From positions 100,378,001 to 100,442,000 of the forward strand of contig NC_090329.1 of NCBI RefSeq assembly GCF_035084215.1: DNA of 64,000 bases, read 5' to 3'. The stretch is from Heptranchias perlo. Lineage: Eukaryota. Position numbers and translations under genes: made by a program. The notes below the pieces were generated by a model, which did not search any database, had not been told where the DNA came from, and was given only the letters and a program-made list of their open reading frames with translations. Of the stretch, positions 348-64,000 are shown in pieces (position 1 is the stretch's first letter; each line of letters starts with the position of its first letter).

Positions 348-449
348 ATGACAGAATATATGACTTTAAAATGGGGACTGAGTAACATTTTCGTGGCTTG
401 ACCCAATTATCCCCTCCCTCTAAGCTAGCTTCATTTGAAGACTACGTTT

Positions 450-17445: not shown

Positions 17446-19364
17446 AGATCAGGGAAAAATAGTAAAAAGTTCAAATTAAAGGCGCTTTATCGCATGTAAC
17501 AAAGGTAATGCAATAATCGTGGGAGACTTTAATCTTCATATAGACTGGGCAAACCAAATTGGCAAAAGTAGTTTGGAGGATGAGTTCATGGAATGTATTC
17601 AAGATAGTTTCCTAGAACAATATGTCGAGGAACCAACCAGGGAACAGGCTAGTTTAGATCTTATCTTGTGTAATGAGACAAGATTAAGTAGTAATCTCAT
17701 AGTAAGGGATCCTCTGGGGAAGAGTGATGATAATATAATAGAATTTCACATTGAGTTCGAGAGTGACATCTTAAACTTAAACAAAGCCAATTACATAGGT
17801 ATGAGGGGCAACTTGGCTAAGGTAGATTGGGAAATTAGATTAAAAGGTATGACGGTAGATAAGCAATGGTGAACATTTAAAGAAATACTTCATAATTCTC
17901 AACGAATATACATTCCATTGAGGAATAAAAACTCCATGGGAAAAGTGATCCATCCGTGGCAACCTAAAGAAGTTAAGAATATTATTAGGTTAAAAGAAGA
18001 GGCTTATAATGTTGCCAAGAAGAGTAGTAAGTCTGAGGATGGGAGAGTTTTAGAAACTAGCAAAGGATGACCAAAAAATTGATAAAGAAGGAGAAAATAG
18101 AATGAGAGTAAACTAGTAAGAAATATGAAAACAGATTGTAAGAGCTTCTACAACTATGTAAAAAGGAAGAGAGCAGCAAAATTAAATGTGAGTCCCTTGG
18201 AGGCAGAGATAGGAGAAATTATAATGTGGAATAAGGAAATGGCAGAGACATTTTAAACAAATATTTTGTGTCTGTCTTCATAGTGGAAGACACAAAAAAC
18301 ATACCAGAAAAGTGGGGAACCAAGGGTCTAACAAGAGTGAGGAACTTAAAGTAAATTAATATTAGTAAAGAAAAAGTACTGGAGAAATTAATGGGACTAA
18401 AATCCGACAAATCCCCTGGACCTGATGGGCTACATCCTAGGGTTCGTAAAGAGGTGGCTGCAGAGATAGTGGATGCACTGGTTGTGATCTTCCAAAATTC
18501 CCTAGTTTCTAGAATGGTTCCAATGGGTTGGAAGGTAGCAAATGTAATCCTGCTATTCAAGAAAGGAGGGAGAAAGAAATCAGGGAATTACAGGCCAGTT
18601 AGTCTGTTATCAGTAGTCGGGAAAATGCTGGAATCCATTATTAAGGATATGGTAACAGGGCACTTAGAAAATCAAAATATGATTAGGCAGAGTCAACATG
18701 GTTTTATGAAAGGGGAAACATGTTTGACAAATCTACTGGAGTTTTTTGAGGATGTAACTGGCAGGGTAGATAAAGGGGAACCAGTGGATGTTGTATATTT
18801 GGATTTTCAAAAGGCATTCGATAAGGTGCCACATAAAAGATTGTTACACAAGATAAGGGTTCATGGGGCTGAGGGTAATATATTAACATGGATAGAGGAT
18901 TGGTTAATGGACAGAAAATAGAGAGTAGGGATAAACGAGTCATTTTCAGGTTGGCAGGCTGTAACTAGTGGGGTGCCGCAAGGATCAGTACTATCAGGGC
19001 CTCAGCTATTTACAATCTATATTAATGACTTAGATGAAGGGACTGAGTGTAATGTATCCAAGTTTGCTGACAATATAAAGCTAGGTGGGAAAGACGACAC
19101 AAAGGGCACGATTTTAAAATGCCGGTGGGATGGTAGTGAGGTGGGGGGGGGGGTCAATGGGTGCGCGGGTAGCCTGAGTACTAAAACCTTACCGTTCCCC
19201 ACGAGATTGCGATTTAATTGGTGGCCATTAACCTTATTTCCGAATTTGCCGTCCGAAAGCTGCACAGTGGGTGGACTGTGCACCCGCATGGCCTGCTGTC
19301 AGCTGGAGCGTCTGGATTTAAAGGGCCAGTGCACCAATGGCTTTTGCTGGAGCAAGGAGACAGA

Positions 19365-21279
19365 ATGGAGCAGCAGAGGGGCAAGCCAGCTCCAAGATTC
19401 AGCGACACCTCACTTGAGGTGCTGCTGGCCGGGATGAGGAGGAGGAGGGAACAATTCTACCCGGCCGACCGGAGGAAGTGCCCTGCCTCTGGCACCTAGA
19501 AGGCCTGGCTCGAGGTGGCAGAGGAGGTCACCAGCAGCAGCAACATCTCCTGCACTTGGGTCCAGTGCAGGAAGCGTTTCAATGACCTAACTAGGTCAGC
19601 AAAAGTGAGTACACTTACTGATTCTCCTACATTCGTGTTGCACATCACTGCCCCCGACCCCCCCCCCCACCCCAACTCATTCTGCACTGCCAAGACTACT
19701 CCATCATATCACTCCTCACACCCACTTAAGGCTCATCCTCAACTTACCTTCACTTCCTGAGCACTTCCTCACCTCCCCATTTGTGACCCCACCACTGCCA
19801 CTCACCCCAATCCTCATCCAATGTGATGTCTCTCTTTTATACTCACCCTCTGATGCACCTCTTTCACTGTCAGCCTCACCCTAAGCAATGCATTCATCGG
19901 TTGGCCACTTCACCATCACTCACTCACTCGTCTGTACTTTCTCCCCTGCTAGGAGAAGAGAGCGCAAAATGCACACGAGAGGGCGAGGACTGGAGGGGGG
20001 TCACAACAAATAGTGGTCCTCACAGAGGTGGAGGAGGAGGCCCTGGAGATCAGCTGCACCCTCGAGTGCCTGTCCGTCAGGGACGCTGAGACTGGCACCC
20101 CACAAACGTCAGGTGACACAACTTTAACATTCATCACACACAACATGAATTGATGTTAACAATGATTGGCATGTTGAACACCTCAGTATGCTCATCGCAA
20201 CATGATATATCTGTGACGATGCTTAATATTGCCTTCTGTTCTCTTCCAGGCCCTTCAACGACTGCAATGATGGAAGAGGGCGATTCCTCAGAGGAGCTCC
20301 CGGCCTCTGAGGGCGCACCATCACATCTTAGCGAGCCATCCACCAGTGCAGATACTCACACCTCGGTGGGTTCTATTAGTCAGTTAGTTGGGTTGGCACC
20401 TGGTGAGTCACCACACACAAGTGAGCACGAGCAGACACTGGTGTCGGGGCAGCTGTGGAGAGTACGCATCAGTGGGATCATTCCTCTTCAGGCTCTGCTC
20501 AGCTGGACACAGATGCTGAACCCCGGGGGCCATCCTTTAAAAGGAGAATGATAGAGGGGCAGCAGCACATTTGCGAGGTACTGGAACAGATGGCACACAC
20601 ACTCTCCACAATAGTGGAGAGGATGGAGGAGTCCAACTCCTGCATTAATGGAATGGTGGCCCAGGTACGTGAGGGAATCTCTGAGATAGTGTCACAGGGA
20701 TATGAGCAAATGTATGAGATAGTGTCGCACGTAAATGCAAGAATGTCTGAGATACTGTTGCAGTTAAGTGCGGAAATGTCTGTGATGGAGAGAAGGCTAG
20801 CCTCCATTGAGCTTCAAGCACGGCTCACAAATGAGTCCATTCAGGCCCTGACAACAGCCGTTCAGACTCGGGGTGAACAACATTCTGCAGCCTTAACCAG
20901 GCAGACAGAAACTTTACAACAAGGTTTCCAAGGCTTCACACATGTCCTCCAAACTGTTGTCCAGCAGGGTGGAAGGAGTGATGTAGGCCTGGTCCAGGAG
21001 AGGGATGATGGTGAAAAGGGACGTGGAAGTGGGGACGCCACTCAAAGCGCTCCCACATCTCACCCATTGCCCCCCTCTCAACCAGTACCTGCAATGCTGC
21101 CTCCTCTCCAGATGGCCGAGTCTGCCCCTGCACAGGTGCATGTGGAGCAGAGTTTGGCAGGGCCCTTATGGGCTCCAAACCCCAGAGGGCGTAGGCCAAA
21201 TGCATCTAGTCATTCAGGGCATGAACCTGCCACTACCTCTGCTGCAGCCACAGGGGAGGCACCACAAAGTACCAGGTAG
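19365..21279 (+). pseudogene. Harbinger accessory Myb/SANT-like gene, three predicted exons (19365-19604, 19953-20112, 20250-21279)
   Basis: Translates [21 protein letters not shown]...WLEVAEEV...TWVQCRKRFNDL. Introns are GT-AG with pyrimidine tracts. There is a stop at 19497-19499, and exon 3 has a frameshift. Confidence 0.82.
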
Positions 21280-21616: not shown

Positions 21617-22843
21617 TTATGAGAATCGTTCAAATATTAGTGACTCCCTGGCCTCACGAGCAGCCAGGTGAGCCACTGCTCTACAGATGAGTTCCTCCTC
21701 CTTTTCCTTGTCCTCCTCCTCGTCCTCTTCCTCGTCCATCTCCTCCTCAACGTTGATGGTAGATGTGGATGCTAGATGAGGGCATGGGGCCTCATCAACC
21801 GGTAACCCTCTCTGTTGCGCCATGTTGTGCAGGACACAACAGATGACTATAATTCGATCCACTCTCGCTGGTGCGTATTGAAGCGCTCCCCCAGAACGAT
21901 CCAGGCACTGAAATCGCATCTTCAACAGCCCTATCACATGTTCAATGACAGACCTGGTTGTTTTATCGACGCTGTTGCTCGCTGATGGGGTTCCTCAGAG
22001 GTGTCATGAGCCACGTGTGCAAGGGGGTATCCCTTGTCCCCGAGGAGCCAGCCCTTAAGGCTGTTTGGTGCGTGGAAGAGGGGTGGTATGTTGGATTTCC
22101 TCAGAATGAATGAATCGTGGCAGCTGCCAGGGAATCTCACACACGTGAAGAAATCTTTTCCTGTGGTCACAAACAAGCTGAGCGTTGATGGAGTGATATC
22201 CCTTTCTGTTGATGAGCAGTCCTGAATCGTGTGGAGTTGCTCAGATTGCTATATACATACAATCGATTGCACCCTGTACACGTTGGAAGCCAGTCATAGA
22301 GTGGAATCCCACTGCCCTCTCCGTCTGGCTGAGGTCGTCCAGGGGGAAGTTGACGTATTGCGAGGCCCTGCGAAACAAACTGTCGGTGACCTGCCTTATG
22401 CACTTGTGTGCAGGCGACTGAGAGACCCCGGCAATGTCCTGGGTGACGCCCTGGAATGATCCACAGGTGACAAAGTTGAGGGCAGTGGTCACTTTAACTG
22501 AGACGGACAATGAAATGCCACCAGGCCCAGCCGGGAGCTGCTCGCCATGAAGGAGACTGCAGATGTCTGCGACCATCTGGCGACTCACTCTCAGCCTCCA
22601 TAGGCACTGCTCCTGAGAGAGGTCCATGGAGTTGAGCCTCGGTCTGTAAACCCTCTGACGAGGATAGTGCCTCCTGCAACGTCGCTCCCCCTGCTGCTCC
22701 CCTCTGTGCTCTTGTGCAGGTGCCTGTGGCGCAGCACTGTGTGGTGGAGCTGCAAGTAGTGGAAGTGCACACCATGCCTGGCGAGGATGGTGATGTTCCT
22801 CCTCCTTGGATTTACTGGTGAATGCAGCCATTGCGTCCCTCAT
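21617..22843 (-). pseudogene. Harbinger (HARBI1-like) DDE transposase, frameshifted
   Basis: Motifs RVYRPR, VKVTTALNF, VQGAIDC, RFPGSCHDSFILR, GWLLGDKGYPL, IGLLKMRFQCLDRSGGALQY and CCVLHN, followed by an acidic tail. Confidence 0.92.
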
Positions 22844-24107
22844 CCTGATGTCGTCAGCTTGAGGGGGGGTCCAAAAAGTAGGTAAATATGTATAAACAGA
22901 ACAATTCTGAGTGTAAACCAAGAATTTCATGTCTAAACACAAACGTTTGTCTGAGAGAACTGAGTACCCTGCTGCAATAACTCACCTTTTCTCCCCATCT
23001 GTCAAACAGGGATTTAAATGTCCAAATGCTGCCGGCTGCAACTCGCTGAGTTTCCCACGGCGTGTTTCACACAGCATGGGAAACACATTAAGGCAGCGTT
23101 GAAATCGCTTGCCATCATTGTTAATTACATGTATGCACATTTCAAGTACTTTAAGTACTTGAATTGCTGATTTAAATAGCTTCCCACTTCAGAAAATCCC
23201 AATTTTCGTTGCCCCCTCCCGGCCCCCAATGCACCCGCACTTTGCTTTTAAAATCGTGCCCAAAGAGTCTGCAAAGGGATATAGACAAGTTATGTAAGTG
23301 AGCAAGAAGGTGGCAGATGGAGTATAATCTGGGAAAATGTGAAGTTATTCACTTTGGTAGAAAGAATAGAAAAACAGAATATTTTTTAAATGGTGAGAAA
23401 CCATTAAATGTTGGTGTTCAGAGAGACTTGGATGTCCTTGTACACAAAACACAGAAAGTTAACATGCAAGCCAAGCAATTAGGAAGGCAAAGGGTATGTT
23501 GGTCTTTATTGCAAAGGGGTTGGAGTACAAGAGTGAGGAAATCTTGCTGCAATTATACAGGGCTTTGGTGAGACCACACCTGGAGTACTGTGTACAATTT
23601 TTGGTCTTCTTGTCTAAGGAAGGTTCACTCGATTGATTCCTGGGTTGAGAGGGTTGTCCTCTGAGGAGAGGTTGAGTAGAATGGGCCTGTACTCTCTGGA
23701 GTTTAGAAGAATGAGAGGTGATCTCATTGAAACATATAAGATTATGAGGAGGCTTGTCAGGGTAGATGCTGAGAAGCTGTTTCCCCTGGCTGGAGAGTAT
23801 AGAACTAGGGGTCATTGTCTCAGGATAAGGGGTCGGCCATTTAGGACTGAAATGAGGAGGAATTTCTTCACTCAGAGAGGTGTGAATCTTAGGAATTCTC
23901 TACTCCAGAGGGCTGTGGATGCTCAGTCGTTGAATATATTCAAGGCCGAGATTGATAGATCTTTGGACTCTAAGGGAATCAAGGGATATGGGGATCGGGA
24001 GAGAAAGTGGAGTTGAGGTCGAAGATCAACCATGATCTTATTGAATAGCGGAGCAGGCTCAAGGGTTCATATGGCCTACTCCTGCTCCTATTTCTTATGT
24101 TCTTATG

Positions 24108-27499: not shown

Positions 27500-27636
27500 T
27501 GAAATACTGCGGATGCTGGAAATCTGGCATCAAAACAGAAAATGCTGGAAATACTCAGCAAGTCAGGCAGCATCTGTGGAGAAAGAAACAGAGTTTACGG
27601 TTCAGTTCTGACGAAAGGTCATCGACCTGAAACATT
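27500..27636. mobile_element. head-to-head (inverted) fragment of the Penelope-derived hammerhead element
   Basis: 27500-27603 is the element body in minus orientation. It is immediately followed by plus-strand AGTT-CTGACGA-A-AGGTCatcGACCT-GAAACATT (27604-27636). Confidence 0.7.
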
Positions 27637-36200: not shown

Positions 36201-37250
36201 TATGAGGATACAAATTTGGTACAATAATATATTAAGTAAGATAGAAATCAGACACCACCTTGGGAAAGACATTTGGGTCAGCTATTAAAACCACATTATT
36301 CACCACTACAGCATAAAAGGTTTGTCAATGACATGAGCTTAAAGCTCACTTACACTATGAAAGTTCTCTTGTCTGATAGAAATCTTAAGTCATAAGTTTC
36401 ACTGATTCAAAAATGACAGCTCAACTGTTTTGGATGGAGCTCTTCCCAAAAATAGTGAAAACACTCATAAAGATCAGTCTGGGCATTCTGGAAGATACCA
36501 TTCTGTTCACAGATTCACAGTGTATCTCCTAAACAGTGCTTTTTAGCCTAGTGGTGAACCCCTAATTAGACATCACAGATGGAATTAAACAGTTCATCAC
36601 AAGGTTATACTTACTGTGCAAAATAATTGCCACCAATATGAACATATGAGAAAGGACAGGAAAAGACCTTTGACCCTGTCCAGCCTACATGATGCAAACT
36701 ATTCACATCATCAAAGGATCGTACTTCTAGTTTTATGTTCAATCAGCCTAGTAATACATCCTAACACTCTATTTGCTTTCACAACACTGGTCAAGGAACT
36801 TGAGGAGGGGACAACATCTTCACTTGGTGCCCTAGGGATCCACACCAACAAAATGTTTCATTTGGAGATGTCATGAGACACTGCCCGTGGATTTGGTTAA
36901 CAGTTGTTGTTGAGACTGAACTCCAGTCGCTCCCTCTCTCTCACAGAATATCGATTGACCAACTCAGGTCAGCCTCCCTTTAAACCAAGATTAAAGTCGG
37001 CCCCACCCTCTCCTGTAAATACCATTGTCACCCCCCCATACACGGACAAGATGGAAATAGCTAGGAGCAACAGGTGGACATCATTTGATCTCCGGCATCA
37101 GTTGTGCACCTGTTGCCGGGAGCAGGTATTCTGAGAGGGAACTGAAAAATGGATGAGCGACCCACTGGGCCTGCTGCGGCCTGTGCTGGACAAGCTGCAC
37201 ACCTGCCGACAGCCGGGACTGGGACCCCATGGCCTTTTTAAACTTCCAAT

Positions 37251-37788
37251 GCTCAATATCACCAAACCCACCGACACCATCACCACAGCTCGATATCACC
37301 AAACCCACCGACACCATCACCACAGCTCGATATCACCAAACCCACCGACACCATCACCACAGCTCGATATCACCAAACCCACCGACACCATCACCACAGC
37401 TCGATATCACCAAACCCACCGACACCATCACCACAGCTCGATATCACCAAACCCACCGACACCATCACCACAGCTCGATATCACCAAACCCACCGACATC
37501 ATCACCACAGCTCGATATCACCAAACCCACCAACATCATCACCACAGCTCGATATCACCAAACCCACCGACATCATCACCACAGCTCGATATCACCAAAC
37601 CCACCAACATCATCACCACAGCTCGATATCACCAAACCCACCAACATCATCACCACAGCTCGATATCACCAAACCCACCGACACCATCACCACAGCTCGA
37701 TATCACCAAACCCACCGACACCATCACCACAGCTCGATATCACCAAACCCACCGACACCATCACCACAGCTCGATATCACCAAACCCA
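37251..37788. repeat. 37-bp minisatellite, ~14.5 copies (GCTCGATATCACCAAACCCACCGACACCATCACCACA)
   Basis: The 37-bp period is directly visible, and units 7-11 carry C>T and G>A variants. Confidence 0.97.
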
Positions 37789-37829
37789 TGACTCATGAAC
37801 CATGACCCTCAGGCCCTTTACCTCAGCTA

Positions 37830-43382: not shown

Positions 43383-43771
43383 AAATCTCTTTCTGATCAA
43401 ATATCTAAACATAACTCAGTACAATATAAACAAATGTTTTTGGAGAATTATTAATCAGAATCTTGCATAGTTTGCCAACTATGTAATTTTGGATCTCAAC
43501 CCTCCTTCCCCCACGAACACTGCCATATATATAGAAGTCATATTCCGTTTGTTAACTGAAGCAAAAGAACTGCAATTGTAAATAGCAGACTTGCTCTGAT
43601 CCTCTCATTGATCTACACTTTGACTGAGGGATATCTTCGGTAGGCAAGAGTTATACAGCGTTACATTTGAATAGGGACATAACAAACAATCAGATCTATA
43701 CTAAAATAGAAACAGAAAATACTGGAAACACTTGGCAGGTCAGGCAGCATCTGTGGAGAGAGGAAGGTAGG

Positions 43772-43805
43772 GTTAACGTTTCAGTCGATGACCTCTCATC
43801 AGAAC
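43772..43805 (-). ncRNA. minimal hammerhead ribozyme motif within a Penelope-derived short element (~43700-43830)
   Basis: The minus strand reads GTT-CTGATGA-G-AGGTCatcGACT-GAA-ACGTT-AAC, with the AACGTT palindrome intact. Confidence 0.7.
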
Positions 43806-44608
43806 TGGGAGATGTTACAGATGAATCAGATAGACAATAATTAACTGCAAAATTTCATTTAAACTAAGCAGGTAATGGCAAAAGAATCACATTGAAAGGC
43901 GATCAATCCCCAATCAGACAGAAATTCAGTCGTGTCCCTGAACAAATATAACAAGTCAGTAAAGGTAAGGAGCACAATGAGGATTGGCTAAAATGCAGAA
44001 TCAACAAGAAAGAAGGAAAGAGCTTGTATTTATCCAGTGCCTTATCACATCTCTCAGAAATGTCCCAAAACGCTCGAGTTGATAAAGACAAGCTGAGCAA
44101 GTTGAGAGAATTTGGCCTGATCTAGAACTTGGCATTAGCATAGTTGGCTTGATGCTAATTTCAGTTATTTGAAATTTCAAGTCCTTTGAGCCCATTTATT
44201 ATGGCAGGACAGTGGAAACTGTTGTTATGGGGAACTTGCATAATGTGGGAGTTGCTGGAAAATATGAATGTCTAGGATAGTCACAGGTGTAAGGAGTGCC
44301 TCCAGGTGGACTTGCTCGAGCTCAAGGTTATTGAGTCTGAGGAACAGTTGGTCGTACTCAGCACTATATAGGAGAGCACATTCCAAGACATGGTCAGCCT
44401 ACAGCTAGAGTGGAATTGTGAGGAAGGGACTTGCTGGGATAACATAAAGGGGGCAGAGACCCAGCGAAACTGGCCTCCGCTCCTTTTTCCTGACCTTTAC
44501 ATCTGGGAAATGGACATTCCCAGCCGAATGACCTCCTTCTACTCCAGGTTCTACAATTCTACTTGAAGTGCAATCACTGTTGTTTTGTATGGAAAAGGTA
44601 TAGACAGT

Positions 44609-47270: not shown

Positions 47271-47360
47271 GGTCATCGACCTGAAACGTGAACTCTGTTT
47301 CCTTCTCCACAGATGCTGCCTCACTTGCTGAGTATTTCCAGCATTTTCTGTTTTTATTTG
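47271..47360 (+). mobile_element. truncated copy of the Penelope-derived hammerhead element (lacks CUGANGA)
   Basis: Reads GGTCatcGACCT-GAAACGTGAAC followed by the same body as 248-347. Confidence 0.7.
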
Positions 47361-50578: not shown

Positions 50579-51169
50579 GGGCCAATTTTCCTGCAACAGT
50601 CCCCCACCACCCCCCCCCCCCCCCCAACCCAACTCCCTGCCTCGCCCCAGTGCTGGACAGGATCAGTGCACCCAAAGTTTGCTGCTCATGTTCAAGCCCA
50701 GAAGCACCAGGATTTCCTGACCTGGGCCATTAACCCAGCCTGGGGGCACCCCCAGTGCAGCCGCCTGGGGGCACCCCCAGTGCAGCCCGAGCCTCCGGCA
50801 AGGCCTAATGTCAGCGGAAGATGCAGGAAATGTAGGCACAGCCTCTCCAGCATCAATTACATTTTCTAGTAAATTACCTCAAAGGGAGTCATGCTAGTTC
50901 TCAGCTGGTGTGAATTCCACTGAGGCCTTTTATGGGCAATAAAGGCAGATTTTTCCAGGAAAGCTCGTGAACTTCCCCCCAGCAAGGCCCCTTAACATGG
51001 CCAAGTGGGTAGGAGATCTGCCCACAGCCTCCCCAACTGGAATTTAGACGGTCAGAGCAAATGGTGCAAAATCTCACCTCACAAAACACCACCCCCCACC
51101 CCCCTACCACCATCACCAGAGGTAGAAATCAGGCTTTCCACCCTCTCCAGATGCAGGAATTTCAGGGCC
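50579..51169. mobile_element. MITE-like element
   Basis: Imperfect inverted termini GGGCCAATTTTCCTGCA / TGCAGGAATTTCAGGGCC. Confidence 0.5.
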
Positions 51170-52106
51170 TGAGATTCTAGCAGGAGATCCTAGCAGAAGG
51201 GCATAGCCCAAAACAATGACCCATTTGCTCTCTCCACGGGTGTTGGATGTCCTGCTGTGTGCCTCCAGCATTTTCTGTTTTTGGTTCAAATTTCCTGCAT
51301 TTGTATTTTTTTGTAATCTGCTCAATGCATTTTCCTAGTGTATTTTACATTACCTGTGAGTCCTACACTTCTATTTACCAGGCGGGCATGGTGTCAGTGA
51401 TATCTATATTCTCCCCTAAGGACAGCCCAGAAGTTGGTGATTGTTGATGCTCCTAACACTGAGGGCTCATTGTGACTGAAGTGGCAAATACTCCATATGT
51501 TCCTTCATCGGTATCAGAAGGCTTCAGCAATTGAGTCACTATGTGACACTGCTCTTGGAGGCAGAGCCACTTATACAGGACCTGTTGCTGGCACAGAACT
51601 CATTCTGACATCTCTGTCACTCACATGTATCTCAGCTACTCCTGTGCTCAGAGGCTGTTGATGTTGGAGAACATTTCCTCAGGACATCCACAGATTTGTC
51701 AAGAGACAAGACAGTGTGCGGTGCTGAGGTTCCTAAGTCTTTCCATGAAAAGGCCTCAACCCTTCTTTGGCTCCTCATCTTATACCTGCTAGCCCCTGTT
51801 CAGACCCTATCTCTTCTGCCCTTTCTCACCACCATGCCATGCGATATCCAGTGCTGCTCATTATCTTTAAGTCCCTAAATGCTAGTTTATGGGCTGGTTC
51901 TACTGTGGACCCTGTTAATGAGCAACACATTTTTCTAAAGTGACATAAGTAGACATTATTTGTAGGGTCCCTATACTTTTATGGCATGCAAAATACAAAT
52001 ATGATGAGATCCCTTTTTTAATAAACACCATTTTCGTTAGTGCACATTTATACAATTGTAAACAATTTTACAACACCAAGTTATAGTCCAGCAATTTTAT
52101 TTTAAA

Positions 52107-52145
52107 TTCACAAGCTTTCGGAGGCTACCTCCTTCCTCAGGTGAA
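52107..52145 (-). ncRNA. minimal type I hammerhead ribozyme in the 3' pLTR (sense to the ORF)
   Basis: Reads TTCAC-CTGAGGA-A-GGAGG(tag)CCTCC-GAA-AGCTT-GTGAA, with AATAAA just downstream. Confidence 0.85.
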
Positions 52146-52380
52146 CGATGTGGAAATGAAATCCTCGAAATGAAGTCGCATTTATAATTCACAGAACAAT
52201 GCTTGGTGAGTACAGACAGTTTTTTCAACTGCCCGTTGCCAAGGCAATCAGTGTGCAGACAGACAGGTGTTACCTGCCAGGTCTCACAGAATATACAAAT
52301 CACCAAAAAAAACAACAAACAAAAAAAAAACAGAGATAGAGAGGTAGAAACATAGAAAAGACAGCAACTGACCCGTTATA

Positions 52381-54374
52381 TTAAAAACAGATAACATTTG
52401 TTCGCTGGTGGGGTAACGTGTAGCGTGACATGAACCCAAGATCCTGGTTGAGGCCGTCCTCATGGGTGCGGAACTTGGCAATCAATTTCTGCTCGACGAT
52501 TTTGCGTTGTCGTGTGTCTCGAAGGCCGCCTTGGAGTACGCTTATCCGAAGGTCGGTGGCTGAATGTCCTTGACTGCTGAAGTGTTCCCCGACTGGGAGG
52601 GAACCCTCCTGTTTGGCGATTGTTGCGCGGTGTCCGTTCATCCGTTGTCGCAGTGTCTGCATGGTCTCGCCAATGTACCATGCTCTGGGGCATCCTTTCC
52701 TGCAACGTATGAGGTAGACAACGTTGGCCGAGTCACAGGAGTATGAACCATGCACCTGGTGGGTGGTGTCCTCTCGTGTGATGGTGGTATCTGTGTCGAT
52801 GATCTGGCATGTCTTGCAGAGGTTACCGCGGCAGGGTTGTGTGGTGTCGTGGATGCTGTTCTCTTGAAAGCTAGGTAATTTGCTGCGAACGATGGTCTGT
52901 TTGAGGTTGGGTGGCTGTTTAAAGGCGAGTAGTGGAGGTGTGGGGATGGCCATAGCGAGGTGTTCGTCGTCATTGATGACATGTTGAAGGCTGCGGAGAA
53001 CATGGCGTAGTTTCTCCGCTCCGGGGAAGTACTGGACGACAAAGGGTACTCTGTTGGTTGCGTCCCGTGTTAGTCTCCTGAGGAGGTCTATGCGATTTTT
53101 TGCTGTGGCCCGTCGGAACTGTCGATCGATGAGTTGAGCGTCATATCCCGTTCTTACTAGGGCGTCTTTCAGCGTCTGTAGGTGTCCATCGCGTTCCTCC
53201 TCGTCTGAGCAGACCCTGTGTATTCGCAGGGCCTGTCCATAGGGGATGGCCTCTTTGACGTGGTTAGGGTGGAAGCTGGAAAAGTGGAGCATCGTGAGGT
53301 TGTCCGTGGGCTTGCGGTAGAGTGAGGTGCTGAGATGCCCGTCTTTGATGGAGATTCGTGTGTCCAAGAAAGGAACTGATTCTGAGGAGTAGTCCATGGT
53401 GAGCTTGATGGTGGGATGGAACTTGTTGATGTTATCGTGTAGTCTCTTCAGTGATTCTTCGCCGTGGGTCCATAGAAAGAAAATGTCATCGATGTATCTG
53501 GTGTATAGTGTTGGTTGGAGGTCTTGTGCAGTGAAGAAGTCGTGCTCGAACTTGTGCATGAAAATGTTGGCGTATTGGGGTGCGAATTTGGTCCCCATGG
53601 CTGTTCCGTGTGTTTGGGTAAAGAACTGATTATTGAAGGTGAAGACATTGTGATCCAGGATGAAGCGGATGAGTTGTAGGATGGCGTCCGGAGATTGGCT
53701 GTTGTTGGTGTTGAGTATTGATGCTGTCGCAGCGATGCCGTCATCGTGGGGGATACTGGTGTAGAGTGCTGAGACGTCCATCGTGGTGAGAAGTGTTCCT
53801 GGTTCAACTGGTCCGTGGGTACTGAGTTTTTGTAGGAAGTCTGTAGTGTCGCGACAGAAGCTGGGGGTTCCCTGTATGATGGGTTTCAGGATGCCCTCGA
53901 TGTATCCAGAGAGGTTCTCACACAGGGTTCCGTTGCCTGATACAATAGGACGTCCGGGTGTGTTGGCTTTGTGTATCTTTGGGAGGCAGTAGAAGTCTCC
54001 CACGCGGGGAGTACGTGGGATGAGAGTGCGTAGGATGCTTTGAAGGTCTGGATCGAAGGTCTTGATCAGTTTGTTGAGCTGGTGGGTGTGTTCTTTGGTC
54101 GGGTCTGTGGGTAACCGTCTGTAGTGTTCCTGGTTGTCCAGTTGTCGGTATGCTTCTTTGCAATAGTCCGTTCTGTTCTGTATGACTATGGCTCCTCCTT
54201 TGTCCGCTGGTTTGATGACGATGTTGCGGTTGGTCTTGAGAGCGTTGATGGCGTTGCGTTGTGCTCGGGTGACATTCTGGACTGTCTTCTGAGTGCGGCT
54301 GATGAATCTGGCATTGACGCATTTCCTGACAGCTTGAGCATACATGTCCAGCTGAGGGCAGCGACCCTCACCTG
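52381..54374 (-). CDS. Penelope-like reverse transcriptase + GIY-YIG endonuclease (N-terminally truncated, no internal stops)
   Basis: Motifs KPADKG, LPKIHK..PGRPIVS, MDVSALYTSI, GTAMG...ANIFM, RYIDD, Cys linker PCRGNLCKTC and NVVYLIRC...YIGET..LRQRMNGH. The start at 54393 in the ORF track lies inside the inverted pLTR and is not native. Confidence 0.93.
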
Positions 54375-54514
54375 GAGACCTGGCAGGTAACACCTGTCTG
54401 TCTGCACACTGATTGCCTTGGCAACGGGCAGTTGAAAAAACTGTCTGTACTCACCAAGCATTGTTCTGTGAATTATAAATGCGACTTCATTTCGAGGATT
54501 TCATTTCCACATCG

Positions 54515-54553
54515 TTCACCTGAGGAAGGAGGTAGCCTCCGAAAGCTTGTGAA
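54515..54553 (+). ncRNA. identical hammerhead ribozyme in the inverted pLTR
   Basis: Helix I is TTCAC/GTGAA, the core is CTGAGGA...GAAA, helix II is GGAGG/CCTCC, and palindromic AAGCTT replaces helix III. Cleavage is predicted after 54548. Confidence 0.85.
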
Positions 54554-56351
54554 TTTAAAATAAAATTGCTGGACTATAACTTGGTGTTGTAAAATTGTTT
54601 ACAATTGTCAACCCCAGTCCATCACCGGCATCGCCACATCACATTTATACAGTTAGATCTATGTCACTACAGGACAAAATATGATTTGCAATGATAAACT
54701 ATGTTATTCAAATATGTGCAAACAATGCCTGGTGAAGGCTGTGGGAGTTAGAGTTCTATTTCTGCATCAACCTTAATGGCTGTCCTCAGCTCATGGTAGT
54801 TTTTCCTAACATTTTTCTAGGACACCCTTGGGTTTCTGAGCTGGCCTGTGATTCCCGAAAAGGTCATCCTGCTTTTCATGCATCCCAGACAAGAATGGTG
54901 AGATTACGGTGAGAAAGTGAGGGTGTCCAACCAGTATGAACAGCCATTGCTTAAGAAGTCTGACTTCCTCACTGCACAGCTGTATCAATGGCCTGGTCAG
55001 AGATACTGGTGATTAAATAGTCTGGAAAAGATGATTAATGCAGTTAAATGCAGCTTGGCTGCTTTCTGAAATTATGTGATACACGGTTCGTACTGGAAGA
55101 AACGCTGATGCACCTTTGGTTTGGTGAATCATTGATATTCATCAAGAGAAACAGGTAAACTTCAATAATTATTTCTAAATGGGGAAAATATAAATATTCG
55201 TGCATTAGATTTTTTTTTGTCCTGTTTGTGGAAATGTCTGCAATGCCAGTTAAACAATTAGATGGAATGTTACCAGCTTGGTGTGGTGTTTGGAGTCAGT
55301 TCTTGGATGAATTTTACACTTGTTGGCAGAATAAAACTGGTAATGGTTGAATTCTATGCTGTGTGTTTTGTTACACAGGATATGCACAGCTGACACTTTT
55401 TTGTAAGGTGTTTCACTGTTGGGGGGGACTGTCCTTCGAATGACGTGAGAAACTGAAGAGGCCCTCCCTACAGTGCATGTGTGTAAACGCACAAAGCATG
55501 TTAAACAAGGTTAAAGAGCTGCAGGCAAAATTAGCCACATGGAAATATGATGTTGTGGTGATAACGGAGACCTGGCTCAAAAAAAGGGCAGGATTGGGTA
55601 CTAAATATTCCTGGATACAAGGTGTTCAGGAAAGATAGGGAAGGAAAGAAAGGAGGTGGGGTGACAGTATTGATTAAGGAGAATATTGCAGTGCTGGAGA
55701 GAAAGGATGTCCTTGAGGGGTCAAGGACAGAATCTATTTGGTTAGAATTAAGAAACAATAGAAGTGCCGTTACACTACTGGGTGTATTCTATAGGCCACC
55801 AACTAGTGGGAAGGCGATAGAGGAACAAATTTGCAGGGAAATTACAGAGAGATGCAAAAACCATAGAGTAATGATAACTGGGACTTCAACTATCCCAATA
55901 TAGACTGGATAACAATAATAATATAAAGGGCAAAGAGGGGGAGGAATTTTTGAAGTGTGTTCAGGAGAATTTTCTCGACCAGTATGTTTCCGGCCCAACG
56001 AGGAAGGAGGCATTGCTGGACTTGGTTCTAGGGAATGAGCTGGGCAAAGTGGAGCAAGTGTCAGTGGGGGAACATTTAGGGAATAGTGATCATAGTATCA
56101 TAAGTTTTACAATAGCTATGGAAAAGGATATGGACCACTCTAAAGTAAAAATACTCAAATGGAGGAGGGCCAATTTCGGTGGGATGAGAACTGATCTGAC
56201 CCTGGTAAATTGGAATCAAGGATTGGAAGGCAAAACTGTAATTGAACAACTTTAAGGCGGAGATGGTTCGGGTACAGTCTAGGTACATTCCCACGAGGGG
56301 GAAAGGTAGGGCAACTAAAGCCAGAGCTCCCTGGATGACAAAAGAGATACA

Positions 56352-58088
56352 GGGGTCAATTTTCGGATGGCCGAGCAGGTGCATTCGTGGCGGGGGGGGG
56401 GCTCCTAAAATTGGGGATTCCCGGAGCAGGTCCGGAGCCTGACTCCAACCCGCCCACTTCCGGGTTCCCCAATGACACGAATCGGTGCATGTGCAGCCCC
56501 CGCATGCGGGACTCCCACCAGCAATCAAAGCCGACGGGATCCCACTTAAGATCATTATCTGGGTACTTGAGGCCGTTTACAGACCTCATTAGTTGGAGAT
56601 TTTAGGAGGATTCGGATTTTGAACTATCCAGAGCGTGTTTCCCATGCTGGGGGAAACACTCCCTGTTTAAACAGACGTGTTGCAGCCAGCAGCCTGTGGC
56701 AGCTGCAAAGATCCATTTAACAGGTGCGGGGTAAACCCTCATTCATTGCAGCAGGGCACTCTGTCACCTCAGACAAAGTTTTACCTGCCACACAGTTGTC
56801 TCCACACTCCAAATTATTAAATCATACCCTAAACTCTGCTGTTCAAACACATTTACCTACTTTGCGGACCCCCTCACACTCACACCGTCAGGATGGGGGT
56901 GGGGGGGTGGTTCTATTGCTGCATTCATCACTCCATTGGAGGATGAGCAACATCACCAGCCTCGCCAGGCACGCCGTCCACCTCCGTCACGTGGAGCTAC
57001 ACAACACGGAGCGGCGCACAGGCACCTGCACAAAGTAGTCGTGCAACTACACATACACCCACTGTAGGGTGACCCAATGGGTGGCATCTAGGGTGTTCAT
57101 TGAGAACCTCATGAAAGGGCCTTATTGCACAAGCCAGTCAAGAATGGCCAAGAAGTGGCAGTAGTGGTGCCAATATAATATGTAATGTGAGTTGATCAGA
57201 AATCAAATATAAGTAAAAACCATGACAAACCCTCAAACACCCTTGTGCATCCCCTTCATGCTCACGACATATTTGCCTTACGCTTCCTACTACACATATG
57301 TGATGCATGCCCTGTGGCTGCAGCACAGGTAGTGGCAGGTTGGGTGAGGCTGACTGTGAAAGAGATGCATGAGAGGGTGAGTATGAGACAGAGCCATGAG
57401 ATTGTATGAGGATTGGGTTGAGTGGTAGTGGTGGGATGAGTACTGGCGAGGTGAGGAAGTGCAGGTAAGATGAGGATGAGTTTTGAGTGGGTGTGAGGAG
57501 TGATGTGACAGAGTAGTGTTGGCAGTGGGGTGGGGGCGGTGATGTGGAAGACGGAGTGTAGGGGAATGAGTAAGTGTACTCACTTCGGCTGACCTACTTA
57601 GGTCATTGAAGCACCTCCTGCACTGTGTGCAGGTGCGTGATATGTTGTTGGTGCTGGTGACCTCCTCTGCCACCTCAAGCCAGGCCTTCTTGGTGGCAGA
57701 GTCAGGCCACTTCCTCCCGTCCGCCGGGGGGAAGATCTCTGTCCTCCCCCTCCTCCTCCCCCATCCACTAAGACCTGGAGTGAGGCATCATTAAACCTGG
57801 GAGCACCCTTCCCCCTGGGCTGCTCCATGCTGTAATTTTGGCTCCTTTCTGCAGCATCAGTCAGTGGAGGACTGCCCCTTTAAATAGAGCTCCTCCAGCT
57901 GACAGCATATGATGCGGGTGCGCAGTCCGCCCGCTGCGCAGCTTTCCAGCGCGAAACCCGGAAGCAAAGGTAAGTGGCTTCAATTTACTTACGATCGCGT
58001 GGGGAACCCACCGATTTTACTGGGCGGGTTACCCATGCGCCCAGTCAACCCCCCGCTGGCAACCCGCCTCCCTGTTAATATCGGGCCC
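56352..58088 (-). mobile_element. non-autonomous Harbinger deletion derivative, both ends present
   Basis: Termini are GGGGTCAATTTT / AATATCGGGCCC with TSD ACA/ACG. It carries Myb exon 1 (MEQPRGKGAPRFNDASL, CTQCRRCFNDL) and closely resembles 27637-28985. Confidence 0.88.
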
Positions 58089-58528: not shown

Positions 58529-61010
58529 CATAGAATCATAGAATCATAGAAAATTTATGGGACAGAAGGAGGCCATTCAGCCCATTGTGTCCACGCTGGC
58601 TGAGAAACGAGCCATCCAGCCTAATCCCACTTCCCCGCATTTGGTCCATAGCCCTGCAGGTCACTGCTCTTCAGGTCTACATCCAGGTATTTTTAAAATG
58701 AGTTGAGGGTTTCTGCCTCTACCACCCTCTCAGGCAGTGAGTTCCAGACCCCCACCACCATCTGGGTGAAAACATGTTTCCTCATTTCCGCTCTAATCCT
58801 TCTACCAATTACTTTAAATCAATGCCCCCCTGGTTATTGACCCCTCTGCTAAGGGAAATAGGTCCTTCCTACTCACTCTATCTAGGCCCCTCATCATTTT
58901 GTACACCTCAATCAAATCACCCCTCAGCCTCCTCTGTTCCAAGGAAAACAAACCCAGCCTATCCAATCTGTCATCATAGCTAAAATTCTCCAGTCCTGGC
59001 AACATCCTTGTAAATCTCCTCTGCACCCTCTCTCGTGCAATTACATCCTTGCTGTAATGTGGTGACCAGAACTGTGCACAGTACTCAAGCTGTGGCCTAA
59101 CTAGTGTTTTATACAGTTCCAGCATAACATCCCTGCTTTTATATTCTATGCCTTGGCTAATAAAGGAAAGCATTCCATATGCCTTCTTAACCACCTTATC
59201 TACCTGTCCTGCTACCTTCAGGGATCTGTGGACATGCACTCCAAGGTCCCTCACTTTCTTTACACCTCTCATTATCCTCCCATTTATTGTATATTCCCTT
59301 GCCTTGTTTGCTCTCCCCAAATGCATTATCTCACACTTCTCCAGATTGAACTCCATTTGCCACTCTTCTGCCCATCTGACCAGTCCATTGATATCTTCCT
59401 GCAGTCTACAGCTTTCCTCCTCACTATCAACCACACAGCCTATCTTTGTGTCATCCACAAATCTCTTAATTATGCCCCCTACGTTTAAGTCCAAATCGTT
59501 AATGAATACCACAAAAAGCAAAGGACCTAGTACCGAGCCCTGCAGCACCTAAGCTTTCCGTAGTATTGAGTTCCCGGTGTCTATCATAAGCTTTCTTTTT
59601 CTGCCTTATCTTACGCTGAGTGCTTCTTGACATCCAGGGGGCTCTAGATTTGGCAGCCCCTCCGTTTTTCTTTGTGGGAACATGTTTACCCTGAACCCAT
59701 TGAATCACCCCCTTGAATGCCTCCTACTGCTCTGACACTGATTTACCTTCAAGTAGCTGTTTCCAGTTTACTTCTGCCAAATCACTTCTCAGTTTAGTAA
59801 AATTGGCCTTTCCCCAATTGAAAGCTTTAACTCCTGCTCTGCTTTGTCCTTTTCCATAACTATGCTAAAACTAACTGTATTATGATCACTGCCACCGAAA
59901 TGCTCTCCCACTGCTACTTCTTCCTCCTGCCCCTCTTCATTTCCTGGAACTAAATCCAGAACTGCCCCCACTCTCGTTGGGCTTGCTATATACTGGCTAC
60001 AAAAATTCTCCTGTATGCAATTTAAGAATTCTGCGCCCTCTATACCATTCACACTGTTTGTATCCCAGTTAATATTAAGGTAGATGAAATCCCCTACTAT
60101 TTCTGCCCTATTGTTTTTGCACTTCTCAGAAATTTGCCTACATATTTGCTCCTCTATCTCGCTCTTACTGTTTGAGGGTCTATAGTACACTCCCAGTAGT
60201 GTGACTGCCCTTTTTTTGTACTTTAGCTCAACCCATAAGGCCTCATTTGATGCTCCTTCTAAAATATCATCCCTCCTCACAACTGTAATTGTTTCCTGAA
60301 CCAAAATTGCCACCCCTCCTCCTTTTTTATCCCCCTCTCTATCGCGTCTCAAAACCCTGTAACCAGGGACGTTGAGCTGCCAGTCCTGCACCTCTTTAAG
60401 ACATGTTTCTGTAATAGTTAAGATATCATACTACCACGTGTCTACCTATGACCTCAGCTCATCCGCCTTATTTCCTATACTCCTTGCTTTGAGGTAAATA
60501 CATTTAAGGACTGCCAAATTCCTCTGTTGTTTATTTTCTAACCTTCGTTCCCTCTGCCTTCCAGACTCACTCACTAATTTTCTGCCTTCCATTTCCAGTT
60601 CTGACTTTATTCCATCTGAATCCACAGTCAGGTTCCCATCCCCCTGCCAAGCTAGTTTAAACCCTCCCCGACAGCACGAGCAAACCTCCCCGCAAGGATA
60701 TTGGTCCCGGCCCTGTTGAGGTGCAACCTGTCCGGCTTGTACAGGTCCCACCTCCCCCAGAACCGGTCCCAATGCCCCAGGAATCTAAAGCCCTCCCCCT
60801 TGCACCACCTTTGCAGCCACGCATTCATCTGCTCTATCCTCCTATTTCTATTCTCACTGGCGCGTGGCACTGGGAGTAATCTGGAGATTACTACCTTTGA
60901 GGTCCTACTTTTTAATCTTTTTCCTAACTCCTTAAACTCTGCCTGCAGGACCTCATCCCTCTTTCTACCTCTGTCGTTGGTCCCGATATGGACCACGACC
61001 TCTGGCTGTT
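58529..61010 (-). mobile_element. CR1 LINE with partial ORF1 (SGNH esterase-like), APE, internally deleted RT and 3' tail
   Basis: 60652-60996 encodes VHIGTND...D.LHLN..G, 59789-60391 encodes APE, 58814-59548 encodes QGSVLGP..FVDDTK, and the (ATTCTATG)n tail is at 58529. Confidence 0.92.
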
Positions 61011-64000
61011 CCTAGGTTGCTGAGGGAAGTAAGGGTAGAAATTGCGGCCATAATCTTCCAAACATCCTTAGATTCGAGGGTGGTGCCAGAGGGCTGGAGA
61101 ATTGCAAATGTTACACCTTTGTTCAATAAAGGGTGTAAGGATAAACCCAGCAGCTACAGGCCAGTCAATTTAACTTCGGTGGTGGGGAAACTTTTAGAAA
61201 TGATAATCCTGGACAGAATTAGCAGTCACTTGGACAAGTGTGGATTGATTAGGGAAAGCCAGCACAGATTTGTTAAAGGCAAATCATGTTAAACTAATGA
61301 GTTTTTTGATGAAGTAACAGAGGGTCAATGAGGGCAATGCAGTTGATGTGGTGTGTATGGACTTTCAAAAGGCGTTTAATAAAGTGCCGCATAATAGGCT
61401 TGTCATCAAGATTGAAGCCAATGGAATAAAATTGGCTAAGTAACAGAAAGCAGAGAGTAGTAGTGAACAGTGTGCATAAATCGTTGAAAGAGGCAGGGCA
61501 GGTTGAGAAAGTGGTTAAAAAAGCATACAGGATCCTGGGCTTTATAAATAGAGGCATAGAGTACAAAAGCAAGAAGTCATGATGAACCTTTATAAAACAT
61601 TGGTTCGACCACAACTGGAGTATTGTGTCCAGTTCTGGGCACCGCACTTTAGGAAAGATGTGGAGGCCTTAGAGAGGATGCAGAAAAGCTTTACTAGAAT
61701 GATTCCAGGGATGAGGGAGTTTAGTTACATGGATAGACTGGAGAAGCTGGGGTTGTTCTCCTTGGAACTGAGGAGGTTGCGAGGAGATTTGATAGAGCTG
61801 TTCAAAATCATGAAGGGTCTAGACAAAATAGATAGAGAGAAACTGTTCCCATTGGCGGAAGGGTCAAAAACCAGAGGACATAGATTTAAGGTGATTGGCA
61901 AAAGAACCAAAGGTGACATGAGGAAATTTTTTTTATGCAGCAAATGGTCTGGAATGCACTGCCCGAAGAGGGGAGGAGGCAGATTCAATCATGGCCTTCA
62001 AAAGGGAACTGGATAAGAACTTGAAAGGAAAGAATTTGCAGGGCTATGGGGATAGGGCGGGGGAATGGGACTAGCTGAATTGCTCTTGCATAGTGCCGGC
62101 ACGGACTCGATGGACTAAATGGCCTCCTTCCGTGCTGTAACCTTTCTATGATCCTATAATTCTACAGAAGGCCCCAGAGAGTGGGGCTTTCACTTCAGTA
62201 GTCATTACTAAAACTGGATTAACCCTGGTGTCATGTCAAATATTTCCCTAAAAAAAACTTTTATTTCTACTTTTACCATTAGATAAGATCGGATGATTCA
62301 AGTTGACTTACAGTTCAGTTAAATATCTTCAAAATGCAAGATATAAGTGCCTGATTTTTGAGCATAAAAGCATAAATTATGAGTTATCTTATTTTTCCTG
62401 GAGTTTAAATGTGAGGCAGGCACCTCTTCACAACTGTAGAATTCCTTCTTTCTTCATAGGACAAACTGTGCCTTCAGCACTTAAGAGATCTGCCAATGTA
62501 AAGTTTGCTGCTGTTCTGCCCATTTTAATTGGCACCTCAAATCCTTACCTTCACTAGGACTTTGTCATCAGGCTGCCTGAAGCTATTAGGGAAGAGAGAA
62601 CTCCTTCGTGATTTCTCTTGTACTTTGAATGGTCTAGTAGAAGTCATACATAACTGAAACTTTTAGTTTCTTTGTGCTTTCACTGCTAGGTGCCAGTATA
62701 AACTGCAGCTTGATAAAATACATACTGCCTCAGCTCTGCCAAATATGAGTTCAACCTGGCATGCTAGAACAGCAAGATAAGATAGTCTGGCGAATTTGAA
62801 AACTACACACCAAAATATCTTCAGAGCTGGAACTTATTAGTACTGACTTCTGGTGATTTTTCCAATATGTAAGGCTTCCTAACATTAACTATTTGAGTAC
62901 GGCTCAGAGTAACAGCCCTGGCAATGCTCCACTATTAGCTCATTTTACAATCCTTGTGATATGCTGTCACCATCATATGTACCAATTAAAAATGACTGAC
63001 TAGACACTCCAAATTTAAACAAATCAAATTTTTTTAACTGCATTTGGAGGAAATATTAATAGTTGTGGAAAATGCCAGTTTTTTTTTCAATATGTTCTTG
63101 TTAATTATATCATTGAGTTCTAAAAGTCCAGGTCTAAACTAAGACTTCCTGTATATAATTATTTGTGATTAAACTTAAGATCCTGAATTTAATTATCCAT
63201 GTAATACTCATGCATGTGTATTTGTGGTTGAATACCATAAAAAGACTGGCATAGTGACCCTAGAGTTATTTGTCTGCAAACTCGTGGAATAGCTGGAAGC
63301 TTTTGAGATGGAAAGCACAATAAATCTGAACAAAGCCCTACTGTTTAGATCTAGTTAGTTAGACCTCCTCAATTAAACTGTAAGGGGCGATGTATTATAA
63401 TGTTCAGTGGGAACTTCCTCTGTTCACTAAATGCAGCAAAACTGTAAACATGTTCTTTATAAACAATTTCACTACAAAGAGCGAACAGAGGAAATCATCG
63501 CTAAATATTGCAATACCACCACCGTAGAGTTCCATTTGCAATTAACATACATTCCTGCTTCATATGTATGAACTAGATGAGTAAATACAGCAAGGTCATT
63601 CAGTGCATGACAGAAAAGATTGCACAACCAGCATAAACCCATAACCCATGAACATTTAGTCATATATAGATATGGTCAGGAATGGGCTAGTTAATTGCAT
63701 GACTGAATGTGTGGCTTTGAATTTATGCCATGAAAGTGTTTGAAAACATTATACTTTTTTGTCCATTTATTTTGATTTTTGACAAGTTCATAGATGATTT
63801 CTTTTAACTTTGTGCAAGAATTTTATGTGAGTGTTTGATTCTGTGTAGGAGACTATTGAAGGCAGGGAGATAGGTAGTGGTTTGGGGGGGAAGAAGTTCA
63901 GAGGGCAGGGATGCCCTCTTTAGTCCTCTGCTCCCAGTAGAGCGAGCAGCTTCTTGGGGAAGGTAATCGATCTCCTCTGGGATTGATAACCCTCCCCTGC

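Follow-up and report, generated by a model that had tools for sequence, protein, structure and literature searches.

How a retrotransposon copy comes to lie between two oppositely directed copies of its own pseudo-LTR (pLTR), with a tail on only one of them, is the question raised by positions 52043..54651 of the 64-kb window (the window being the whole stretch of DNA analysed, 64,000 nucleotides). The locus is, with good confidence, a single 5'-truncated insertion of a Neptune-type Penelope-like element (PLE) in the genome of Heptranchias perlo or a close relative. Its parts, all coordinates being those of the window, are as follows.

52043..52054, no strand: left copy of the target-site duplication (TSD), whose final 3 nt are also in arm 1 (microhomology)
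52052..52285, minus: arm 1, the tail-less 3' pLTR (in ORF sense)
52096..52101, minus: arm 1 AATAAA, mirroring 54559-54564
52106..52146, minus: minimal type I hammerhead of arm 1, descriptor hit mirroring the arm 2 motif, predicted cut after 52112
52286..52380, minus: unique 3' UTR stretch of 95 nt with a T-rich run
52381..54369, minus: native ORF, 5'-truncated, 662 codons and stop
54370..54374, no strand: internal junction of ~5 nt, of inferred origin
54375..54608, plus: arm 2, the inverted pLTR, same sequence as arm 1 and directed away from the ORF
54514..54554, plus: minimal type I hammerhead of arm 2, predicted cut after 54548
54559..54564, plus: AATAAA hexamer of arm 2, 11 nt past the predicted cut
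54567..54630, plus: predicted stem-loop across arm end and tail (z -1.96; 5 of 200 shuffles fold equally well)
54609..54639, plus: tail of 31 nt, 74% A+C, possibly 33 nt (2 nt common to the TSD)
54640..54651, no strand: right copy of the TSD

The first-pass annotation had taken the locus for a PLE, and the reverse transcriptase (RT)/GIY-YIG ORF, the pLTR arms, the TSD and the hammerheads bear this out. The stop-free frame of ~660 codons that it had noted runs from 54450 to 52381 on the minus strand (689 codons from stop to stop, 662 of them native and the first 27 derived from the inverted arm and junction), with its first in-frame methionine at 54345. The native ORF encodes a DKG motif, RT motifs including YIDD, a CX4CXXC linker (52807-52833, residues 540-548) and, at the C-terminus, a GIY-YIG endonuclease with CCHH. 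Pfam matched RVT_1 in the ORF (E 2.8e-10) and GIY-YIG in the C-terminal piece alone (E 5.6e-4, score 20.6, below the cut-off of 22.6); the GIY-YIG motif is conserved together with R603, E653 and N668, and C583, C587, H607 and H623 are invariant or almost so in the homologue alignment. This single ORF, the hammerhead motif within the pLTR, and pLTRs (direct or inverted in such elements) accompanied by a TSD and the optional tail of 30-40 bp make up the canonical PLE EN+ organization. The Zn-finger-like CX2-5CxxC linker preceding the endonuclease is common to the Neptune and Nematis clades and missing from Penelope/Poseidon, and Neptune is favoured over Nematis because one survey of vertebrate PLE clades recorded only Neptune and Poseidon. 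In the tree, the element groups inside a clade with three H. perlo copies (support 100/98), and H. perlo RefSeq models (XP_067848012.1 and its cluster) share 89-98% amino acid identity with the window copy in 24 of 24 comparisons. The protein collection searched holds no entry identical to the sequence from the first methionine, and solved structures gave 0 matches. A non-LTR retrozyme, defined by non-coding tandem repeats with at least two same-sense hammerheads, was ruled out, as the body is coding and the two hammerheads lie on opposite strands.

Measured against its homologues, the ORF is missing some 225 codons at its N-terminus. Among 120 homologues, 62 are at least 780 aa long and have a median of 224 residues upstream of the junction; 55 of these 62 carry an upstream GxxF/Y-x-P motif that is missing from the window ORF, and a complete ORF is thereby ruled out. 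Within the same family, P0128 (H. perlo, 95% identical) and P0140 (S. torazame) reach 43 and 167 residues further upstream, respectively. An N-terminal query from P0140 matched 3 of 210 candidates in the search for a full-length shark protein, none of them from H. perlo, in a collection of cluster representatives whose annotation masks repeats. An autonomous PLE has a complete N-terminus including a GxKF/Y motif and a direct upstream pLTR (partial tandem), which supplies the promoter of an active element, whereas here ~225 codons are missing and the upstream arm is inverted only. Because the ORF is truncated and the sense upstream pLTR is missing, the copy was probably dead on arrival, inactive or non-autonomous; a protein starting at Met 54345, with the RT and endonuclease motifs intact, could still be encoded.

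The first-pass annotation overlooked this truncation and, while right about the PLE, the hammerhead type and the inverted pLTR, overstated how young the copy is in calling it "very recent". The window copy has seven private amino acid changes in 632 columns, all transitions and four of them CpG losses, and 8 of the 24 H. perlo copies have fewer; its non-CpG divergence is ~0.2%. At the age implied by these changes, perfectly identical arms would be expected with P about 0.2, and the 234/234 identity bounds divergence to 0.64% per arm and no tighter, which is a long time given shark mutation rates (PMC10587355). Identical repeats in a shark genome need not, then, mean a very recent insertion. 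The insertion is young and not brand-new, it stems from a family burst that counts as recent by the time scale of sharks, and the element is an ordinary kind of shark Penelope-like copy, fairly young and shortened.

The layout itself is as first described. The arms (52052-52285 and 54375-54608) are complementary at 234 of 234 positions, the 31-nt extension (54609-54639) is restricted to the inverted arm, and the 12-bp flanking direct repeat is present at just two places in the 64 kb, 52043-52054 and 54640-54651; a 12-mer common to both neighbourhoods of random position pairs was found in 9 of 200,000 trials. Arm 1 shares the final 3 nt of the left copy, which makes the true TSD 9-12 bp and not simply 12; counting 2 nt at the end of the tail as element-derived would widen the range to 7-12 bp. 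The tail sequence is unique within the 64-kb window, and no further copies of the element's family were found there apart from the arms. The ~5 nt at the junction (54370..54374) match neither the context of arm 1 nor the family residue at that codon; the same 5-mer also occurs 8 nt away within the arm end, and possibly it is a templated filler. The end point of arm 1 (equivalent to 54605-54608) falls at the base of the apical hairpin of the predicted stem-loop, a structure of modest stability (z -1.96).

The hammerhead at 54514..54554 consists of a 6-bp stem I, the core, one additional A between A9 and G10.1, a 4-bp stem II and a CUU triplet, without helix III. The minimal type I is defined by a conserved core with stems I and II, an NUH triplet, a palindromic 15.2-16.2 and a nucleotide between 9 and 10.1, all of them present here, and the earlier assignment to the known minimal dimer type is correct. 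A minimal-hammerhead descriptor matched three loci across the window, two of them in the arms (54520+ and 52140-) and the third, at 254+, unrelated, and none in 100 simulated windows. With Rfam, the window as a whole gave 0 matches when gathering scores were applied, and 54370-54660 gave 0 at E up to 10; Rfam is not known to contain a minimal-hammerhead model. The predicted cut after 54548 and the AATAAA (54559-54564) agree with the first-pass annotation, which found a full core in each arm; of the palindrome AAGCTT that it put in place of helix III, only the inner 4 nt would make that helix in a dimer, whereas the flanking A and U occupy core positions 14 and 17. Cofolding gave -37.0 kcal/mol for the dimer vs 2 x -13.6 kcal/mol, with stem II swapped and A14-U17 paired. 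A cis dimer of the two ribozymes was ruled out: they face outward on opposite strands, so that no transcript can form one. Both are passive copies of the one ribozyme of the family pLTR, the usual by-product of insertion; judging by the literature, the ribozyme of the parent element probably acts slowly on tandem transcripts, either dimerized or aided by protein.

The likeliest origin, to which we give about even odds, is that cDNA was primed from both nicks in the target, each using a different one of the two known start sites, and that the two cDNAs were end-joined. The RT/endonuclease would have cut the two target strands at points 7-12 bp apart; the first nick would have primed cDNA at the inner start site (the arm 1 end), with extension over ~2.3 kb, and the other at the outer start site (the tail end), with extension over ~265 nt, before host end-joining united the converging cDNA ends and left a few filler bases. 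One such event would yield the inverted arm, the one-sided tail, the TSD and the truncation. Each end of the insertion is an element 3' end; the two are separated by 31-33 nt around the AC-rich stem-loop and lie 57-93 nt past the cut site. In an anole element, two RT start sites bound the tail in an AC-rich stem-loop, and this element nicks and extends both strands, uses uncleaved RNA and has been modelled as a dimer (PMC11167929); it belongs to the Poseidon clade and not to Neptune. Because both cDNAs cross the cut site, we infer that the template RNA was neither cleaved nor polyadenylated at the ribozyme and AATAAA. The earlier prediction of transcripts ending in ribozyme and AATAAA is right as to the DNA motifs but would not hold for the RNA used as template. 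A gene model from Chiloscyllium (P0113) has an antisense tail and hammerhead ahead of an RT truncated at a different point, the match requiring a minimum of 38 base differences in 126 (mean 71 and minimum 51 in 100,000 controls); as a gene model, P0113 may be spliced. A search for more such chimeras returned only P0113 itself among 3 candidates, and one weak match (E 1.9e-4) covered 23 residues. The end microhomologies of 3 and probably 2 nt have a joint chance of about 1-2% and are only suggestive, and priming by the anole element is reported to occur without homology (PMC11167929). The fuller picture, of a fossil of double-ended target-primed reverse transcription by a dimeric PLE particle with the cDNAs fused by host end-joining, is plausible and held tentatively. 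Its components are already published (PMC11167929); the joined model for inverted pLTRs was not found in the non-subscription literature or in the main text of PMC11167929.

Alternatively, an originally longer insertion, with an inverted pLTR followed by a direct pLTR, the full ORF and a pLTR, could have arrived whole and lost the direct pLTR and ~225 codons by a later microhomology-mediated deletion, which a single locus cannot distinguish from double priming. A. vaga offers published examples of that complete layout and of derivatives disabled by deletion, and the junction filler is compatible with any end-joining event, yet this course would require a second event in a copy with only ~0.2% non-CpG divergence, 5' truncation is common among PLEs, and P0113 suggests the same joined form with another breakpoint; we regard it as unlikely. 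Similarly improbable is the earlier proposal, based on palindromes at inverted junctions, that an antisense template primes itself to give the inverted arm, while the tail results when the endonuclease resolves the intermediate. A near-palindrome does lie a few bases inside the arm end, but none is centred on this junction, the arm adjoins mid-ORF rather than a direct pLTR, and the tail has since been linked to two RT start sites on the sense template (PMC11167929). Tandem and inverted PLE structures also cause assembly trouble, but it is very hard to credit that assembly or polishing created the inverted arm or made the arms perfectly identical, given that a unique 12-bp TSD encloses the whole unit, that the tail has no other occurrence in the window, and that the layout agrees with published copies (PMC3846280).

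The first-pass annotation had further suggested that read-through RNA of this very recent copy could fold into a 234-bp duplex, which would hide the ribozyme and supply small-RNA silencing; the reading weighed here is that of a brand-new copy whose duplex silences its family in this way. Masking is thermodynamically possible, as judged by folding: the arm duplex reaches -444 kcal/mol vs -62 and -52 for local folds, and the hammerhead is buried when the entire element is folded, on either strand. The element's CpG observed/expected ratio (0.85 vs 0.35 in the rest of the window), the small RNAs given by A. vaga PLE copies and the suggested bidirectional pLTR promoter (PMC3846280) also fit. Against this stand both pLTRs, which point outward, the seven private changes with four CpG losses, and the A. 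vaga small RNAs themselves, which are piRNA-like, mostly antisense along the element and not tied to arm duplexes. A host exon is likewise absent among 205 ORFs of at least 75 aa, a search that short exons would escape; Pfam, run on 204 of them and an endonuclease piece replacing the remaining antisense ORF inside the element, found no host gene in the window, its matches being LINE and Harbinger domains and otherwise weak sub-cut-off ones. Overall, this suggestion is quite unlikely as an account of the copy.

By itself the locus is of little consequence, as all its features are described PLE properties and the copy is probably immobile. It is a useful example for two open PLE questions, the origin of inverted pLTRs and tails and the role of minimal hammerheads when retrotransposition requires uncut RNA. 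If true, double-ended priming explains with a single step why pLTRs are inverted, tails one-sided and 5' ends truncated; the two-start-site rule of Poseidon would then extend to Neptune as well, and shark genomes, given how many lightly diverged copies they contain, would become a good test set.

An inverted-pLTR layout with tail and TSD has been described as general for PLEs, and the earlier view of the inverted pLTR as a typical insertion product agrees with a layout already published (PMC3846280). In Adineta vaga, the Pen2a_Av / Pen2_Av derivative resembles the window element in its inverted pLTRs of ~200 bp, a 31-bp tail on one of them and a TSD of 9-10 bp; Pen2a_Av, however, keeps its ORF at full length along with a direct 5' pLTR, whereas the window arm joins mid-ORF, and its pLTR and tail encode the first 22 residues, whereas the stretch from hammerhead to tail end here is without an ATG (PMC3846280). 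The Poseidon element PAc of Anolis carolinensis likewise combines RT and C-terminal GIY-YIG with a pLTR hammerhead, a tail in an AC-rich stem-loop and an AT-rich target, but it lacks the linker Zn-finger, its ORF begins inside the hammerhead, and it was tested in vitro, whereas the window element is known from sequence alone (PMC11167929). The minimal hammerheads of metazoan PLEs are similarly of type I, without helix III, with palindromic 15.2-16.2, an additional nucleotide between 9 and 10.1 and G10.1-C11.1, and opposite-strand pairs are already recorded in Schistosoma (PMC4209133). Compared with these, stem II is shorter here (4 bp, or 5 with a predicted closing pair, vs 7-8), and U17 lengthens the palindrome to 6 nt, with an A14-U17 pair predicted in the dimer.

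The Penelope-like element (PLE) at 52043..54651 contains all of the features listed by the first-pass annotation, namely the inverted arms, the extension, the direct repeat, the open frame and the hammerheads.

Components of the element
52052-52285, minus strand: left pLTR arm, same sense as the ORF
54375-54608, plus strand: right, inverted pLTR arm
54609-54639: 31-nt extension (tail), on the right arm only
~54370-54374: internal junction between ORF and inverted arm

Complementarity between the arms is 234/234 across a spacing of 2089 nt, and the unit is bracketed by a 12-mer with exactly two occurrences in the window. A chance origin of this pair is excluded because only 9/200,000 random position pairs have a nearby common 12-mer, and since three bases of the left repeat are common to the arm, the target duplication is 9-12 bp. 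On the minus strand, the frame runs for 689 codons from stop to stop, with Pfam matches to RVT_1 (E 2.8e-10) and, weakly, to GIY-YIG in its C-terminal piece. Its CX4CXXC linker, DKG, YIDD and CCHH endonuclease motif mean Neptune or Nematis under published definitions (PMC8557442); of the two, it is Neptune that vertebrates are reported to have (bioRxiv 10.64898/2026.07.22.740005), and the element is probably of that clade. Among protein matches, gene models from sharks rank first (Heptranchias perlo, 94-95%; Scyliorhinus torazame, 85%), followed by proteins of 881-882 aa at 66% and 56% and by turtles at ~45%. In the tree of 32 rows, the window copy and three H. perlo models form a starred clade (100/98), which is enclosed by another starred clade holding every one of the tree's six H. 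perlo models. This placement makes H. perlo or a near relative the probable host. Family copies are also annotated inside host gene models of H. perlo (P0128 and P0025; divergent protein kinase domain 2Ab and epn2 isoforms), reflecting either exonisation or annotation error.

Minimal hammerhead descriptor matches occur at 54520(+), 52140(-) and an unrelated locus, 254(+), compared with 0 in 100 simulated windows, and Rfam returned no match. Each hammerhead combines a complete core, a single additional A following A9 and a CUU triplet with a 6-bp stem I and a 4-bp stem II containing G10.1-C11.1, and a 2-nt palindrome takes the place of helix III; the hallmarks listed for PLE minimal hammerheads are those seen in both arms, and opposite-strand pairs, inactive monomers and low dimer activity have been reported for that class (PMC4209133). 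The CUU triplet fits the NUH rule, the fastest triplets being GUC and GUA (PMC3138052). Cofolding of two copies favours the dimer (-37.0 vs 2 x -13.6 kcal/mol), with A14 paired to U17, positions that should be free. A cis dimer is impossible at this locus, since in any transcript the single sense ribozyme is accompanied by an antisense copy that matches it perfectly. The suggestion that the arm duplex masks the ribozyme agrees with predicted folding, which would bury it on both strands (-444 kcal/mol). The further suggestion that read-through RNA feeds small-RNA silencing is hypothetical. In vertebrate cells, long duplexes are edited more often than diced. Measured downstream from the predicted cut site, the two ends of the element are at 57-60 and 91-93 nt; they are 41-77 nt beyond AATAAA and carry no poly(A) tail, and we infer from this that the reverse-transcribed RNA was uncut at the ribozyme site. 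This agrees with the anole element, in which ribozyme mutants insert normally and protein is required for cleavage (PMC11167929). Unlike the anole and rotifer elements, where pLTR and tail are coding, the window copy has no ATG from hammerhead to tail end (54514-54641(+)); the family would be expected to start translation where the tail ends or immediately beyond.

Each outer junction is a 3' end of the element RNA, the two lying 31-33 nt apart, and the inner one falls at the base of the apical hairpin in a predicted stem-loop (z -1.96; 5/200 shuffles) whose 3' side is the tail (74% A+C). The anole protein nicks and extends both strands, and its cDNA starts at two sites bounding the tail inside a stem-loop rich in A and C (PMC11167929). 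The simplest reading, tentatively held at about an even chance or slightly less, is double-ended priming, in which each target nick would prime a cDNA of its own, long in one case and short in the other, and end-joining would then unite the two. At the internal junction, ~5 bases repeat a nearby 5-mer and stand in place of a family proline codon, and the end microhomologies, 3 nt at one end and probably 2 nt at the other, would arise together by chance with a probability of 1-2%. A single further case is the Chiloscyllium gene model P0113, in which antisense tail and hammerhead appear to be read ahead of an RT truncated elsewhere. A longer insertion that was shortened afterwards by deletion, and self-priming on an antisense template (PMC3846280), are less likely alternatives. 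Double-ended priming was not found stated in the text of the literature searched, including PMC11167929.

By comparison with its homologues, the ORF is truncated. Frame residues 1-27 come from the inverted arm and junction, and homologue alignments begin at residue 25-28; 62/120 protein matches are at least 780 aa long and carry a median of 224 residues (10-90%: 178-277) upstream of the junction, beyond which P0128 (95% identical) extends 43 residues and the S. torazame homologue P0140 extends 167. An upstream GxxF/Y-x-P motif, present in 55/62 of these long homologues, is absent from the window copy. Both pLTRs are directed outward from the ORF, unlike the D. virilis layout, where the promoter is located in the direct upstream pLTR (PMC2377424). 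Because of the truncation, the missing motif and the outward pLTRs, the copy is most likely non-autonomous, and it was probably dead on arrival; given its intact catalytic motifs and a Met at 54345, expression from a foreign promoter may occur.

The proposal that the copy is very recent is overstated: the open frame, the identical arms and the CpG observed/expected ratio (0.85 in the ORF vs 0.35 elsewhere) count for youth, whereas 7 private residues in 632 columns (1.1%) count against a very recent insertion. Among the 24 H. perlo models compared (15/54 members of one cluster, 6/6 of another and 3 others), 8 have fewer private residues, 1 ties and 15 have more (median 1.7%). All 7 changes are single transitions and 4/7 remove a CpG, a pattern that matches methylation decay following insertion. 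The implied non-CpG divergence of ~0.2% (95% range 0.05-0.64%) predicts 1.5 differences between the arms (P(0) = 0.22). At the rate of another shark, the epaulette shark (7e-10 per base per generation; PMC10587355), insertion would date to the order of a million generations ago or more, an age subject to the facts that gene models favour young copies and that private residues could derive from another species or a source element outside the sample. The presence of younger copies shows that the family moved after this insertion.

The window is repeat-rich, with Pfam matches to LINE (RT, endonuclease, esterase) and Harbinger-type domains and to no host exon.

Other repeats in the window
251-349(+), 43706-43806(-), 47271-47357(+), weaker 51225-51282(+): second short repeat family, ~100 nt
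27523-27636: two divergent second-family pieces with a short fold-back palindrome where they meet, at ~27604-27608
7317-8091, 21620-22981, 57293-57787: decayed Harbinger-type transposons (DDE_Tnp_4 and Myb-like domains)
17480-19434, 58817-61289, 55565-56252: CR1/L2-type LINE relics (RT, endonuclease and esterase pieces)
~37135-37805: tandem repeat, open in each of the three plus-strand frames
50738-50787: 25 nt duplicated perfectly in tandem, 1.3 kb to the left of the element

The LINE piece at 55.6-56.3 kb was recognised by eye, with no Pfam match, and Pfam matches to the ~37135-37805 repeat fall below cut-off and look spurious. Second-family copies are 78-91% identical to the copy at 251 and are probably either solo pLTRs or a SINE-like element derived from a different PLE; the pieces at 27523-27636 represent a small PLE-type insertion, inverted and lacking a body. 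The second family starts with a minimal hammerhead built like those of the arms (extra A, 4-bp stem II, 6-nt palindrome, U at position 17).

The ribozyme link of PLEs is restated in review (PMC6765202, PMC6155905). Treatment of the inverted pLTR as a typical insertion product accords with the literature, in which a unit has, like the window copy, inverted pLTRs, a 31-bp tail and a 9-10 bp TSD (PMC3846280), and in which such a unit is termed typical (PMC8557442). The layout is already known, and the window copy is a further example of it.
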